Notes under the pieces: model-generated | The model's input: the letters and a program-made list of their open reading frames with translations, nothing else | What the model was told of the DNA's origin: nothing | The model's database searches: none | Program-made: the position numbers and the translations under genes | Assembly: GCA_964493715.1 (NCBI GenBank) | Contig: CAZBPC010000002.1 | Location: 32,001 to 96,000, forward strand | Source: an uncultured archaeon | GTDB lineage: Archaea > Asgardarchaeota > Lokiarchaeia > Sigyniarchaeales > SOKP01 | Direction of reading: 5' to 3' | DNA length: 64,000 nucleotides | In this document: one piece after another, positions 4,523 through 53,880 of the stretch | How positions within the stretch are numbered: position 1 is the first letter of the stretch | Layout: every line of letters begins with the position of its first letter

Positions 4523-5449
4523 TTAGTATCTACTTCTTATTTGATATCGAAATACAACATAAGCTCCAATGATTCCACCTAAATCAGGGAGATAGTATAT
4601 GAAAGAGAGAGGGCTAAATAATACTGGGAAAATCCTCAGTAATATGATTATAATTAATAAGGTTTTTCCTTTCAACCTTACTGGAATGATCATCATTAGC
4701 GCTGTTATTTCTTGATTCATTACGGGGAATATTGAATATGAAATTAAACCTAAAATACCTCCCCATGCGAATCCTATAGGAATTGCCACTAAATTTATTG
4801 GTGCAATACTAATTAATGAAAATCTTAAAAGGATAAATAACAAAAGAGAAAAAAAACTTGATATCATAAAAAGTTTGAAAAGAAAGGATGATCCAAATCT
4901 TATTTCAATAGATCTGGAGAGCAAATACGTGAAAAATAACATTATCGCTAAAAAAAATATATCAATAAATGCATAGTAGCTAAATAAATTAATTTCTGTA
5001 ATGAATAGAGAAGTGAGAATCGTTTGAAATGCGTAATTATTTATTAATCCATTCAAACTAAAATAAATAAATAATTGAAGATTGTTTGCTGCAAAGAATG
5101 ATGCAACTATGGAAAAGACTAAAATAAAAATTAATAGTGTTTTTGTCCCTCTAAAATTCGTGCTCCAATTATTTGAGCGTTTTACTCTTGGTAAATAATT
5201 TTGGTCTTGCCGTTTTAAGTAATTATTCAATTGTTTTTGCTGCTTGGACTTAGATTTTATTTTTTTTGGTTTAATAAGTAAAGGATCCCCTCCAGTAGAA
5301 GTCTTCGGTACTAAGGGGATATGCTTTAATTCAAACGTACACTGATGATTCTCAGGTAATCTATGCTTCTTACAAAATTGTTTCCCGCAGTATTTGCACC
5401 GAAACGGTAAATATCCAATTTCTTCTCCACAAAATTTACATAAGGACAT
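4523..5449 (-). CDS. AN1 zinc finger fused to rhomboid-like (probably inactive) membrane domain
   Basis: N-terminal CKFC..CKYCGKQFCKKHRLPENHQC; IEIRFGS, GFAWGG and DLGGIIG rhomboid-like motifs. Confidence 0.75.
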   Translation of the reverse strand: MSLCKFCGEEIGYLPFRCKYCGKQFCKKHRLPENHQCTFELKHIPLVPKTSTGGDPLLIKPKKIKSKSKQQKQLNNYLKRQDQNYLPRVKRSNNWSTNFRGTKTLLIFILVFSIVASFFAANNLQLFIYFSLNGLINNYAFQTILTSLFITEINLFSYYAFIDIFFLAIMLFFTYLLSRSIEIRFGSSFLFKLFMISSFFSLLLFILLRFSLISIAPINLVAIPIGFAWGGILGLISYSIFPVMNQEITALMMIIPVRLKGKTLLIIIILLRIFPVLFSPLSFIYYLPDLGGIIGAYVVFRYQIRSRY

Positions 5450-9600: not shown

Positions 9601-10605
9601 ATGGATGATATTCTTGAAAAAATAAATTTCATTTTGAAAAAAGCTAATTTTGAAACATTTTTACTTAATAATTTCTATGAAAAAAAGAATAAATTTTGTT
9701 TTGATCTGTTAGCAAAAAAGCAAGGAACTATTTTTAGTGTTAAAATATTTTCAAATATTGATAATCTTAATAAAGACTTAGTAAATGATATTAAATCACT
9801 GTCAATCTTGCTTAAATCAAAACCTTTACTGATAGGTCTTAGAAATAGATACCAAAACTTAGAGGATAATGCTCTATATATGCGATATGGATTGCCTTTT
9901 ATTTCGATTAATACATTTGAAAAAATTATAGAAAATGACGAATATCCATACATATTAGCTAGGAGAGGAGGTGGCATTATTTTCTTGGATGGGCAACTTA
10001 TGAAATTAAAAAGAGAATCTGAAGCAATCTCACGAAAGGAGCTTTCAGAGAAATTGGGTGTTACGAAAAGAACAGTTTGTGCCTATGAAAATGATAGTAT
10101 GCGGCCTTCAGAGAGTATTGCTTTAAAAATTCTTGAATTATTACATGATAATATGATCCTAAAGAGAATGAATCCATTTGGCTGGAAGATAAAATTTGAC
10201 TTTAAAGAAACCTCTATTAGTGAAGAAAAAGATTTAAACCCTTTTGAAACTCATATACATGACGTCATTGAGGATATTGGAATGTCAACATATTGGTATA
10301 GTAAAGGACCCATCCCTTTCAAATTTTCTATTTATTCCCCTTCTGAACCCCAGGTTAATGTTTATCCAATCTTTTCAGGGATCTCTGAAGAACAAAAAAA
10401 AATATCAGAAACTAATTTAAAATGCTTGAAAATATTCACAAATTTATTTCAGAAAAAAAGTCTATTAATTGTAACCAACGAAATTAAAGTAACCGATACT
10501 ATTAAGCAAAACTTTATTCCAATTGTAAAAATTAAAGACTTAGAAAAAGTAGATAACGAAGATGAATTTATTGAACTCGTCAAAGGAACGACAAACAACA
10601 TCTAA
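9601..10605 (+). CDS. Archaeal HTH transcriptional regulator (COG1395-like)
   Basis: CFDLLAKK..VKIFSNID, ARRGG, internal HTH SRKELSEKLGVTKRTVCAYE. Confidence 0.85.
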   Translation: MDDILEKINFILKKANFETFLLNNFYEKKNKFCFDLLAKKQGTIFSVKIFSNIDNLNKDLVNDIKSLSILLKSKPLLIGLRNRYQNLEDNALYMRYGLPFISINTFEKIIENDEYPYILARRGGGIIFLDGQLMKLKRESEAISRKELSEKLGVTKRTVCAYENDSMRPSESIALKILELLHDNMILKRMNPFGWKIKFDFKETSISEEKDLNPFETHIHDVIEDIGMSTYWYSKGPIPFKFSIYSPSEPQVNVYPIFSGISEEQKKISETNLKCLKIFTNLFQKKSLLIVTNEIKVTDTIKQNFIPIVKIKDLEKVDNEDEFIELVKGTTNNI

Positions 10606-10606
10606 A

Positions 10607-11296
10607 TTGATTTGTGGATTAGATGAGGCTGGCAGAATATAATTCGTATCGAATGATATGTTAACAGGACCTGTTCTAGGCCCAATGGTTATTTGTGGTG
10701 TTTGTTTCCTCGAAGAAAATATCCAATCTCTAGAAACTTTAGGAGTGAAAGATTCAAAAAAACTAACTATAAGAAAAAGAACCGAATTATCCGCAATATT
10801 AAAATCAATTTGCTTTTCTTATCAAAATGTTATAATTTCTCCTCAAGAAATTGATGAGAGGATTTCATTGAGAATTTCATTAAACCGACTTGAAGAATTA
10901 AAAATGGCCCAAATACTGAATCATCTAAAGCCAGAGTTAGTATATATAGATGCCGCTGATGTGAGAGAAGAGCGATTTGGACGGTCTATAGCTAAATTAT
11001 TAAATTATTCACCAAAAAAAATCATTTCCAAACATAAAGCTGATGATCTTTACCCAATAGTTTCAGCTAGCTCAATTATTGCTAAAGATATGAGAGATAG
11101 ACTCATTGAAGAACTAAAAAAAAATTATGGAGATTTTGGTTCAGGATATCCCTCAGACGAACGTAGTACGACATTTCTTCGAAAGTGGATAATAGATAAT
11201 AAGAAAGCTCCACCTATTGCAAGAAAATCATGGGAAACTACGAAAAAAATAATAAGAGAAGAAATATTTAATAAGAAGATTACTGATTATGTATAG
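10607..11296 (+). CDS. rnhB: Ribonuclease HII split by a 30-nt BHB intron (exon 1 to 10635, exon 2 10666-11296; alternative in-frame ATG at 10562)
   Basis: Spliced sequence reads ICGLDEAGR-GPVLGPM; DSKKL, KADD..VSASSIIAK and GSGYPSD motifs downstream. Confidence 0.93.
10636..10665 (+). other. Putative BHB (tRNA-type) intron in rnhB mRNA, 30 nt
   Basis: Central helix UGGC/GUUA, 3-nt bulges AGA and ACA, intron hairpin AUAU-A-AUUCG/CGAAU-G-AUAU; contains in-frame TAA; removal restores DEAGRGP. Confidence 0.85.
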
Positions 11297-27695: not shown

Positions 27696-27733
27696 TGATT
27701 TTATATATTTTTTTACTACACCATTAATCAAAA

Positions 27734-27834
27734 CGCAGACGGAGGGATTCGAACCCCCGAGCGCTCACGCGCACCGGTTTACTCGAATATGAAAACACTC
27801 AAGACCGGCGTCTTACCAACTAGGCTACGTCTGC
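27734..27834 (-). tRNA. tRNA-Ser(TGA) with 18-nt canonical 37/38 intron (27780-27797)
   Basis: GCAGACG/CGTCTGC acceptor stem, long variable arm, GGTTCGAATCC T arm, CTTG/CGAG central helix. Confidence 0.9.
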
Positions 27835-28094
27835 GTGTTTGAGATAATAAATGGTGTTGATACTTAATCATGAATAATTAAGTTAAATTAGATTATATTC
27901 AATTAAATAAATTTTTTTTTATTTTATCTTCATTTTTTCCTCGAAAAAAATTAAGATGTAATTTCTCTGACCGAATGTGCATTACTTGCACCATTTATAT
28001 CAATAAGGCACAAGACTGAGAGAGATTTACGAATTTCATGAGTAGAACCAAATTTTTCGTAAAATATAAATTTTGTTGTATATTAGAATACTAC

Positions 28095-51394: not shown

Positions 51395-52609
51395 ATTATA
51401 ACAGATAAAAGTGAATTTAATTGTTCAGATCCTAATCGATCCAAAAGACAAGAAATTAATCCCGGGTTATGTTATTTTGAATATCCTTTAAATAAATCTA
51501 GAAAGGATTTTCTTGACAAAGATGTTAATTTTTTAGAGATAATAGAATCAAAACATTATAATAGATGTTTAACTGACAATATTCAGACTTATCTAAAAAG
51601 TCTTGAGGGTGAAATCAGAATTTTATTCGAACCTTTCATAGAATTTAAGAATATGGGTGCACTTTTTGGGCTTCATAATAATTACATGCCAAATAATAGG
51701 ATGTATAAAAATTGTAAAAAAATTATAGCTAAAAGTACTTTAGATGAAATGCGAGTTAATTTCAAAAAAAATATTGAAAATTACACAAAGAAATTTCCAC
51801 ATTTGGTAGAGTTATTATTATTGTTTCATTCTGAAATTTTGAAATTTATTAATGAATATGAGATAATTCTTCAACCAAAACCTACTCCAGATTATCAAAT
51901 GTTCAATCACCATCCTAATCTTAAAAGAGATTATTTTGAAATAATTGATACATATGAAAAAGCGTACTGGCTTGGATTTCTATTTGCTGATGGATGGATA
52001 GCAATAGAACATAAAAAATCTGGAGATTATTATCGAATGGGGCTCCAATTATCATATAAAGACAAGGATGTGCTTCAGAGGTTTTGTAAAAGTATTGGAT
52101 TAAATCCTAAATATATAAAAAATCGTCTTGTTGGAAGTGATTTTAGCACAAAATTATATCATATAGGTGAAATTAGATGGGGAGATCAAAAAATAGCTCA
52201 AGATCTTGTAAAATTAGGGATAATATATGGATACAGTGAACAAAAAGGAAGGCGCGTTAAAACCCCTAGACTTCCAATACTACAGAACCGAAAACTGATG
52301 TTGGCATTTTTATCAGGTTTCTATGATGGTGATGGCACTCTTGGATTTGATAAGAAGACAGGCAAAATTCGTCCAAGAATTGCCTCTTCTGAAATAGACT
52401 TTTTACATCAAATAAAGCAATATTTCGGAATAAAGTATCAAATTTCTACAACAGAAATGGTTAAATTTAATATAAGAACAGAGAAAATGGTTAATATAAT
52501 AGGTAGTAGACTAGATGTTGATAAAGAAATATTTAAAGAAATGTTAAGTATATTTAAGAATAGTCTTGAAAGAAAGAGAGTTCCAATAGATTTCTTTAAT
52601 GAAAAATAG
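51395..52609 (+). CDS. Free-standing double-motif LAGLIDADG homing endonuclease-like protein (first ATG 51653; frame open from 51392)
   Basis: AYWLGFLFADGWI and AFLSGFYDGDGTL motifs; no intein or host gene around it. Confidence 0.82.
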   Translation: MITDKSEFNCSDPNRSKRQEINPGLCYFEYPLNKSRKDFLDKDVNFLEIIESKHYNRCLTDNIQTYLKSLEGEIRILFEPFIEFKNMGALFGLHNNYMPNNRMYKNCKKIIAKSTLDEMRVNFKKNIENYTKKFPHLVELLLLFHSEILKFINEYEIILQPKPTPDYQMFNHHPNLKRDYFEIIDTYEKAYWLGFLFADGWIAIEHKKSGDYYRMGLQLSYKDKDVLQRFCKSIGLNPKYIKNRLVGSDFSTKLYHIGEIRWGDQKIAQDLVKLGIIYGYSEQKGRRVKTPRLPILQNRKLMLAFLSGFYDGDGTLGFDKKTGKIRPRIASSEIDFLHQIKQYFGIKYQISTTEMVKFNIRTEKMVNIIGSRLDVDKEIFKEMLSIFKNSLERKRVPIDFFNEK

Positions 52610-52693: not shown

Positions 52694-53880
52694 ATGGCTA
52701 AAAATGTAAAGCGAATAGGAATTTTAACGGGTGGTGGAGTTTCATTTAAGATACATCTTTTTGAACCACAGACTGTCCCGGATTAAATTCAGTGATTTAT
52801 GGGATAATGCTGAAAGCTTACGATGCGGATGTAGAATGCGTAGGAATTCTAAAAGGATGGAAAGGTTTTGTTGAAAATTTAACGATTCCCTTAAACATTG
52901 CAGAACATGACGATCTTCATACCAAGGGAGGGACAATATTGTATACAAGTCGTACTAATCCATTTAAAGGAGTTGAGGCTAAAGAGGAAAAAGCAAAGCA
53001 ATTAACTAATCAATTCAATGTGTTAGGTATAGATGCATTAATTGCTATCGGTGGAGATGATACTCTTGGAGTAGCAGATACCATGTATAAAATTGCTAAT
53101 GCAAATGTAGTAGGGGTTCCAAAAACGATAGATAATGACTTGAAGGGTACTCATTACACTTTTGGGTTCTGGAGCGCTGTACAATTAGCTTCTAATGCGA
53201 TGGATAATCTCACAACAACCGCACGTTCACACCAGCGTGTTTTTGTAGTTGAGATTATGGGAAGAGATGCTGGTTTTTTAACCATGTATAGTGGAATTTC
53301 AGCAGGAGCTGATATAATATTGGTTCCTGAAACCCCCTTTAGTTTAGAAAAAGATATTGTTGACGTACTCAAAAAAAGAGCTAATGCTGGGTATAAATAT
53401 CACATCATTGCCACATCTGAAGGAGCTCATCCTCATATCGATTCATTAAATCGAGATTTCAAGACAATTTCAAAGGAAACAATTGATAAATTACCTAAAG
53501 ATACATTTGGGAATCCTTTATTAGCAAAGTTAAACATTTCACAAATTATCGTTGATGAATTAAATTTAAGAGACGATCTAAAAGAAGTATTTCTCCAAAA
53601 TGACGTCGAATTCGAATGCAGGAGCGTAGTTTTGGGACATACAATGCGAGCTGGAACACCTAATTCGTTCGATAGAATTTTGGGATTGAGATTTGGATTA
53701 GCAGCCATGAATATGGTTTTAGAGTCTAAATTTGGGAACATGGTTTCGCTTCAAGGTAATAAAATTAAAACCATGCCGCTTTCGGAAGGGGTAAAAAAGA
53801 AATATATTACCTCAGATAGTGATAAAATGGAATTAAGAGATTTACTTGTAAAAGTGCGGTATCTATCGAAACAAAAATAG
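52694..53880 (+). CDS. pfkA: 6-phosphofructokinase (GGDD/PKTIDND, likely PPi-dependent) split by a 32-nt BHB intron (exon 1 52694-52739, exon 2 52772-53880)
   Basis: Spliced sequence reads MAKNVKRIGILTGGG-DCPGLNSVI; GGTIL.TSR, GGDDT, PKTIDND and EIMGR motifs; 384 aa after splicing. Confidence 0.93.
52740..52771 (+). other. Putative BHB (tRNA-type) intron in pfk mRNA, 32 nt
   Basis: Central helix GUGG/CCAC, bulges AGU and AGA, intron stem UUCA/UGAA, exon pairing CGGG/CCCG; frameshifts the gene unless removed. Confidence 0.88.

Follow-up and report, generated by a model that had tools for sequence, protein, structure and literature searches.

A bulge-helix-bulge (BHB) intron is reportedly present in the pre-mRNA of crenarchaeal cbf5, with descriptions by Watanabe in 2002, Yoshinari in 2006 and Yokobori in 2009. 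This intron is of the relaxed HBh' type, and its history has been proposed as a gain followed by precise losses (PMC2738675). A BHB intron in the 5' untranslated region (UTR) of the Haloferax volcanii HVO_1309 mRNA was confirmed both in vivo and in vitro, in an account that names cbf5 as the only other reported case (PMC7714728, 2020), and a 2025 paper still cites only the three cbf5 papers (PMC12397907). Asgard archaea are described as having heavily interrupted tRNA genes (PMC11291895, bioRxiv 10.64898/2026.10.13.758758). For BHB introns in Asgard protein-coding genes, no report was found in the literature searched, which did not cover subscription journals or supplements. Here we describe a 30-nucleotide (nt) insert in the RNase HII gene (rnhB) of an Asgard archaeal genome of the Lokiarchaeia type, G000, located in a stretch of 64,000 nt (G000:C2:32001-96000, hereafter the window). 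From its sequence context, the insert at window positions 10636-10665 is very probably a BHB intron of the rnhB pre-mRNA that is spliced by the tRNA-type splicing endonuclease.

Genome G000 comprises 3.68 Mb in 160 contigs, with 31% G+C and a completeness score of 100%. The rnhB gene occupies window positions 10562-11296 on the plus strand and is the single match to PF01351 in the genome; in a six-frame search, this match spans profile positions 1-199 with one TAA inside. Exon 1 (10562..10635, +), counted from a presumed start codon, translates as MNLLNSSKERQTTSKLICGLDEAG plus the first two bases of an Arg codon. Exon 2 (10666..11296, +) supplies the last base of the Arg codon and continues with GPVLGPM to the stop codon (PF01351, E 2.8e-40, profile 8-199), as an intact run of 209 codons. 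When the insert is left in place, the frame from 10607 (or from ATG 10562) reads SKLICGLDEAGR-I*FVSNDMLT-GPVLGPMVICG and stays the same through 11296, and reading of an unspliced mRNA ends at the TAA after 26 codons. The mechanically called open reading frame (ORF; 10658..11296, ATG 10658, 212 codons) lacks the catalytic Asp-Glu, as the initial annotation of this stretch had pointed out, and matches PF01351 only from profile position 8. The presumed start ATG 10562 overlaps the 3' end of an upstream HTH-domain gene (9601-10605, with its TAA stop codon at 10603-10605) by 44 nt in another frame.

The intron (10636..10665, +, 30 nt) contains the in-frame TAA at 10640-10642 and splits DEAGR from GP; excising 10636-10665, or equivalently 10637-10666, yields DEAGR-GP. 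A 4-bp central helix, H, is formed by UGGC (10630..10633, +), which is exon sequence within the Ala-Gly codons GCU GGC, and GUUA (10660..10663, +), which is intron sequence, through the pairs U:A, G:U, G:U and C:G. Bulge 1 (AGA, 10634..10636, +) and bulge 2 (ACA, 10664..10666, +, with GGACCU next) are 3 nt each and lie on opposite strands, each 3' of its own helix strand, and the NN|N rule places the predicted 5' cut at 10635/10636 and the predicted 3' cut at 10665/10666. The intron hairpin (helix h', 10637..10659, +, 23 nt) is composed of AUAU/AUAU, an A-G mismatch, AUUCG/CGAAU and a UAU loop, and is present in the centroid fold. On the intron side, next to bulge 1, the outer helix h' is thus formed by AUAU/AUAU running into the hairpin. 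This layout is that of a BHB whose central helix joins the 5' exon to the 3' part of the intron, the arrangement also found at the canonical position in tRNA. The initial annotation had described the same insert, in the same letters and frame, with the UGGC/GUUA helix and its two G-U pairs, the AGA and ACA bulges and the hairpin, and all of these stand; the exon pairing AGG/CCU that it added is present too, but is offset and weak. The rnhB motif is a relaxed HBh'-type BHB, not a canonical hBHBh' one.

The rule of cutting after the second base of each bulge was checked on tRNA-Gly(GCC) of G000, whose layout is UUGC-CA|U, a 23-nt hairpin and GUAA-UG|A, and it gave the canonical 37/38 cut and a 30-nt intron. 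Applied to rnhB, the same rule gives AG+A (Arg) followed by GGA CCU, that is, GGC-AGA-GGA-CCT and DEAG-R-GP, as proposed in the initial annotation. Canonical cuts restore DEAG(R/K)GP in all variants of the insert found among relatives, removing 30 nt, or 29 nt in loci L055 and L107. A 4-bp H in register with a 4-bp intron helix at length 30 occurs at 4,675 of 7,330,860 positions in G000 (6.4e-4), which makes a chance match unlikely, and the register at rnhB is fixed independently by protein homology. The intron is not a repeat family by sequence; G000 holds no other copy of it, the best other matches having 8-9 mismatches in 30. At gathering score, Rfam generated hits on two tRNAs in the window and nothing at 10600-10700.

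Conservation of the structure was tested using a 19-sequence alignment of insert variants. Pairing of the central helix and hairpin holds in 86% of cells, a share that falls to 29-42% once the 3' partners are shifted by 1-3 columns. H (alignment columns 9-12/39-42) is paired in 96.1% of cells and occurs as UGGC/GUUA, UGGU/GCUG, CGGU/GCUG, UGGU/GCUA, UGGU/ACCA and UGGU/AUUA. The hairpin helix (columns 16-25/29-38) is paired in 82% of cells, with three pairs changed on both sides and several internal mismatches among the variants. In all, four pairs are changed on both sides, and the covariation score was reached by 5 of 500 shuffles.

Two EndA-family genes were found in G000, each with N- and C-terminal endonuclease domains. 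The product of paralogue 1 (207 amino acids) most resembles the catalytic subunit of the heterotetrameric Aeropyrum pernix enzyme (3p1z_B, E 1e-36, end-to-end alignment) and retains Tyr, His and Lys, which we take to be the catalytic triad. In paralogue 2 (205 amino acids), Ser replaces that His, and because of this replacement the product looks like a structural beta subunit. G000 is predicted to encode an (alpha-beta)2-type splicing endonuclease, and an RtcB gene is present; at gene level, the host therefore has both an endonuclease of the type accepting relaxed motifs and the RtcB ligase. Asgard archaea are described as having an (alpha-beta)2 EndA with an L1 loop insert that gives broad specificity (PMC5829648), two EndA paralogues are reported in 44 of 60 Asgard genomes (bioRxiv 10.64898/2026.10.13.758758), and heterotetrameric EndA with an extra loop is described as accepting relaxed motifs, also outside tRNA (PMC2738675, PMC5829648).

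Cleavage, ligation and any regulatory role of the rnhB intron are what we infer from these features. In the pre-mRNA, the 4-bp central helix would arise by pairing of UGGC at the end of exon 1 with GUUA at the intron's 3' end, and the 23-nt intron hairpin would be stacked on one side of it. The (alpha-beta)2 EndA would then cut after the second base of each bulge, at 10635|10636 and 10665|10666, and RtcB would ligate the exons, leaving a mature mRNA that reads DEAG-R-GPVLGP with the catalytic motif intact.

Several observations weigh against an endonuclease-spliced BHB intron at this site. The outer exon-exon helix h, which the strict hBHBh' form needs, is nearly absent, with one C:G pair followed by GG/CC at an offset of 2 nt, and its A:U pair is kept in just 7 of 16 sequences. 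Two of the four H pairs in the window copy are G-U, and the first H pair is a G-A mismatch in three of the 19 variants (L050, L052 and L108). At minimum free energy, the fold of 10618-10685 is unremarkable (z -0.80), and 46 of 200 shuffles fold equally well. Covariation is modest, 18 and 36 of 500 shuffles reaching the two counts, and the aligned sequences are related, which inflates such tests. Finally, the companion inserts described below, other than that in rtcB, were found with a scan that itself requires the motif, and they provide an independent test of frame restoration only, not of structure.

The missing exon helix and the G-U-rich H depart from the canonical substrate, and in this respect they would suit removal of the insert by another structure-specific nuclease or an unknown self-processing element, or cutting by EndA without productive ligation, in the manner of a decay switch. 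We regard these possibilities together as improbable. The geometry equals that of tRNA introns in G000, and the relaxed motif is one that a heterotetrameric EndA with the extra loop takes, according to the two studies of that enzyme cited above. Moreover, no known self-splicing intron is anywhere near as small as 30 nt, and cleavage without ligation cannot explain the selection on exon 1 that is described below. Splicing of a BHB intron by EndA and RtcB thus remains our preferred explanation for the insert.

RNase HII was found in 39 of 41 related genomes. A comparison of rnhB orthologues, which the initial annotation had suggested, revealed a same-site insert in many relatives and its scar-free absence in others. 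Among the 24 same-genus genomes with a match, nine carry the insert (G000, G001, G003, G006, G007, G013, G018, G021 and G022), and their matches are 30 nt longer with one in-frame stop codon (TAA in eight, TAG in G007); the other 15 read DEAGRGP uninterrupted, with no scar. The insert was found in none of the 15 genomes of other families. A scan of a genome collection, in which the relatives are labelled Promethearchaeota or Promethearchaeia and some Hermod- or Hodarchaeota, found the insert in 9 of 34 loci (L049-L053, L055, L058, L059 and L040). L040 is the G006 locus again, so that the scan added eight new carriers and the carrier loci from genomes number 17 in total. In a metagenome scan, 40 contigs were found and 36 examined, of which nine have the insert. 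One metagenome contig, L085, is 99% identical and carries the intron with a single base change that keeps the pairing (U:A to U:G), and no near-identical contig without the insert, which might have derived from complementary DNA, was found among the metagenome contigs. In each of the 17 carrier loci from genomes, the insert brings the exon-1 frame to a stop. L055 has an insert of 29 nt, its missing base being the unpaired one of the internal loop, and the same 29-nt version is present in the independent metagenome contig L107. Exon 2 of L055 is intact, and because the 29-nt variant puts the two exons in different frames, the insert cannot be translated through. In addition to its intron-bearing rnhB, G007 encodes part of another RNase HII-like domain (profile 1-165), within a 558-codon open frame at G007:C1:1537-2061.

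In a maximum-likelihood tree of exon-2 proteins (59 rows, 8 identical ones dropped), the carriers form a basal grade of a genus-level clade, and intron-less groups are nested inside it. The intron label changes five times on this tree, and at least four of the changes are forced by well-supported branches. The most likely history suggested by the tree is a single gain at the base of the genus-level clade followed by at least four scar-free losses.

With a TAA in frame inside the catalytic motif and a 212-codon ORF opening at ATG 10658, rnhB could also be dead, or could yield only a non-catalytic, 212-residue C-terminal protein from that ATG. The initial annotation had named decay of rnhB, with an intact rnhB elsewhere in the genome, as an outcome that would speak against splicing. 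Instead, exon 2 is intact, at 209-210 codons and with no other lesion, in 17 of 17 carrier loci from genomes, and G000 has no second RNase HII. The ratio of nonsynonymous to synonymous substitution rates in exon 2 (dN/dS, Nei-Gojobori) was 0.10-0.27 in 16 carrier pairs, 0.13-0.20 in four intron-less pairs and 0.11-0.21 in two mixed pairs, and thus carriers equal their intron-less orthologues in this respect. Exon 1 of carriers varies at third codon positions only (GAY GAR GCN GGY), so that the codons for the catalytic D and E are preserved by synonymous-only change. Both rnhB exons are under purifying selection, and neither the relaxed selection nor the further lesions of a pseudogene were seen. 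A truncated protein would in addition have no start codon in four of the 19 variants (G007, L058, L059 and L109), which lack ATG, GTG or TTG at the corresponding place, and frame-breaking inserts of the same design are present in the single-copy rtcB gene and in nadE and leuS, described below. A dead or truncated rnhB is therefore very unlikely, and a split gene reading was also rejected. That an active RNase HII requires removal of the insert, as the initial annotation had proposed, is supported by the single PF01351 match, the purifying selection, the 29-nt variant, the kept pairing and the encoded enzymes taken together.

The initial annotation had counted the rnhB insert as the second mini-intron of this stretch, and pfk in the same window does carry another one, 32 nt long (52740..52771, +), in a gene spanning about 52694-53880. 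Its H pairs GUGG (52734-37) with CCAC (52766-69), its bulges are AGU and AGA, and it parts RIGILTGGG from (D)CPGLNSVIYG, with exon 2 starting at PFK profile position 11. In G016, G020 and G013 the insert is 31 nt long and its H is compensated (GCGG/CCGU), and eight other congeners have no insert in pfk. A second candidate intron inside pfk, at window position 52777, was recognised as a false positive. Directly upstream of pfk, window positions 51653-52609 (+) contain a free-standing ORF of 318 residues with a LAGLIDADG endonuclease domain (PF14528, E 2.3e-8).

A 29-nt insert (G000:C2:12136-12164, -, loci L074-L076) was found in rtcB, the sole RtcB gene of G000, about 20 kb upstream of the window. 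It was found by homology, from a split Pfam match, before any structure search was made; the match is in two pieces in different frames (profile 1-47 and 48-426), and the insert sits between SPGGVGY and DINCGVRLL, where canonical cuts restore the frame. Its motif is near-perfect: H is UUGG/CCAA, the bulges are AUA and AGA, and there are a CAUA/UAUG helix and two exon pairs. Of the 39 relatives that encode RtcB, this insert is shared by G000 and G001 only; G022 and G001 have nearly the same rnhB, but the rtcB of G022 lacks the insert. Such a distribution suggests that the insert was gained, lost or exchanged very recently, or that a bin is chimeric.

Four further genes of G000 have junctions with profile support, each with an insert of 30 nt: nadE (C39:8748-8777, PF02540 profile 143|144 across the junction), leuS (C44:26027-26056, PF09334 profile 46|48), a thiolase gene, in its C-terminal domain (C28:23007-23036, PF22691 profile 49|52), and aEF-2 (C76:5211-5240, -, profile about 44|48). 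Profile coordinates are exactly continuous across the junctions in nadE, leuS and the thiolase gene and near-continuous in aEF-2 and pfk. Candidate inserts of 30 nt were also found in a mevalonate kinase-like gene, mvk (C21:19953-19982, -), a second thiolase gene (C145:299-328, -), an alpha/beta hydrolase-like gene (C2:119236-119265, +), the gene for a 2-oxoacid:ferredoxin oxidoreductase beta subunit, korB (C53:2033-2062, -), and a small GTPase-like gene (C6:80447-80476, +); in these, the motifs at the junctions are presumably those of the named families. The inserts share a common build of 29-32 nt, consisting of a 4-bp helix, a 3-nt bulge, a 22-25-nt hairpin, the second helix strand and another 3-nt bulge, mostly with weak exon helices, and the first base of bulge 1 is A in 10 of 11 inserts.

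The genome-wide scan, which combined structure with ORF joining, generated 93,892 raw candidates, reduced to 1,382 by a strict filter and to 135 loci, most of them there by chance. Its background is dominated by ordinary gene boundaries, its length histogram has no clear peak at 30, and the census is a hand-picked lower bound. Among its false positives were an HdrA-like gene (C39, about 17384, -) with an in-frame TGA beside an FPTDD motif, possibly a selenocysteine codon, and an actin-like gene (C29:30669) and a FAD-protein gene (C52:6987) in which the frame is simply continuous. Introns of the same build are present in tRNA genes of G000, at 30 nt in tRNA-Gly(GCC) and 29 nt in tRNA-Thr and tRNA-Ala. 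ARAGORN detected just 27 tRNA genes in G000, 12 of them with an intron (11-39 nt), and because this number comes from a genome scored as 100% complete, many tRNA genes are probably interrupted beyond the reach of ARAGORN, in keeping with the published accounts of Asgard tRNA genes (PMC11291895, bioRxiv 10.64898/2026.10.13.758758). Within the window, a tRNA-Thr(UGU) gene with an 18-nt intron lies at 27733-27835 (-), called by Rfam at 27734-27834 and by ARAGORN in intron mode only.

The same RNase HII would be made without RNA splicing if the ribosome hopped across the 30 nt by programmed bypassing, or read through them. Translational bypassing has precedents in T4 gene 60 and the mitochondrial 'byp' elements. 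The rnhB insert resembles such a site in being short, in having a hairpin and in carrying a stop codon soon after the take-off position, and the protein would be unchanged if the ribosome jumped from the Arg codon to the triplet directly preceding GGA. However, the take-off triplets (AGA/AAA) and the landing triplets (ACA, ACG, AAA, AAG) agree in only one of the 19 variants (G003, AAA/AAA), and the inserts in rtcB, pfk and other genes split codons without matching triplets. The conserved feature is a BHB geometry with 3-nt bulges, which bypassing does not need, and the same design is present in tRNA genes, which are untranslated. Read-through is impossible with the 29-, 31- and 32-nt versions. 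Bypassing or read-through is accordingly, in our assessment, slightly less credible still than a dead gene. That the insert is an artefact of assembly or sequencing in a 160-contig draft genome, or that TAA is read as an amino acid in an altered code, is hardly conceivable, as the insert is found again in independently assembled genomes and in metagenome contigs, TAA serves as the stop codon of the upstream gene, and inserts of 29, 31 and 32 nt are not rescuable by stop-codon reassignment.

Taking a BHB intron in rnhB as the preferred explanation, introns of this kind would be carried by at least seven protein genes of G000 (rnhB, pfk, rtcB, nadE, leuS, the thiolase gene and aEF-2), and probably by at least 12. 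Genomes that are nearly identical differ in which of the introns they have. Whether this Asgard genus harbours a still-active population of uniform 29-32-nt endonuclease-dependent introns, colonising both protein-coding and tRNA genes, is a proposal to which we give about equal weight for and against. If it is true, RtcB would have to act on its own mRNA for that mRNA to mature, given the intron in rtcB, and the genus would show introns spreading through the mRNAs of a prokaryote, among the archaea most closely related to eukaryotes, possibly with a splicing-gated layer of gene control.

Under the preferred explanation, a housekeeping enzyme of essential type could be made only once a 30-nt tRNA-type intron has been removed. 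Such genes come out of gene calling truncated or split, as with the 212-residue RNase HII without D and E and the split RtcB, and this skews metabolic and completeness inferences for Asgard archaea. The rnhB locus would also be a tractable system for how endonuclease-dependent introns enter and leave coding sequence, and it would be a case, in the lineage nearest to eukaryotes, of mRNA splicing by the tRNA-splicing enzymes that involves a relaxed motif and a heterotetrameric EndA.

Compared with archaeal tRNA BHB introns, the rnhB intron has the same 4-bp helix, two 3-nt bulges, intron hairpin, length and presumed enzymes. It differs in that its host is an mRNA without a tRNA body to aid recognition, and in that the exon half of H consists of the protein-constrained codons GCU GGC. 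The HVO_1309 transcript is likewise an mRNA substrate of the splicing endonuclease, but its intron lies in the untranslated leader and not in the reading frame, and its euryarchaeal host has a homodimeric enzyme. In eukaryotes, XBP1/HAC1 mRNA is spliced by IRE1 cleavage and RtcB or Trl1 ligation as a regulated stress response. Like the rnhB intron as we interpret it, the XBP1/HAC1 intron is a short non-spliceosomal coding intron that a protein endonuclease cuts out at structured RNA sites before a tRNA ligase seals the exons, with a change in the protein product. The nuclease there is IRE1, however, the sites are stem-loops with 7-nt loops and the process is regulated; the comparison is not meant to suggest that the introns or the nucleases are homologous. 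A mention of XBP1 is found in PMC5435141.

The rnhB intron probably works like the cbf5 intron and has the features of the relaxed BHB save for the exon helix. Both are short introns of a coding gene with a relaxed BHB, a hetero-oligomeric endonuclease and a patchy distribution among close relatives, and in both removal is needed for a functional protein. They differ in the gene interrupted, the rnhB intron lying in a catalytic motif, and in the host, an Asgard genus as opposed to Desulfurococcales and Sulfolobales; splicing of cbf5 was shown experimentally, and that of rnhB is predicted. Archaeal coding-gene introns are treated as near-unique in the literature searched, where cbf5 and the HVO_1309 leader are the only mRNA examples, and rnhB would add a case in a new lineage. 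Unlike the cbf5 intron, the rnhB intron appears to be one of about a dozen uniform introns of 29-32 nt in one genome, and this set of mini-introns in a single Asgard genome, including one in the ligase gene, would be the newer part of the finding.

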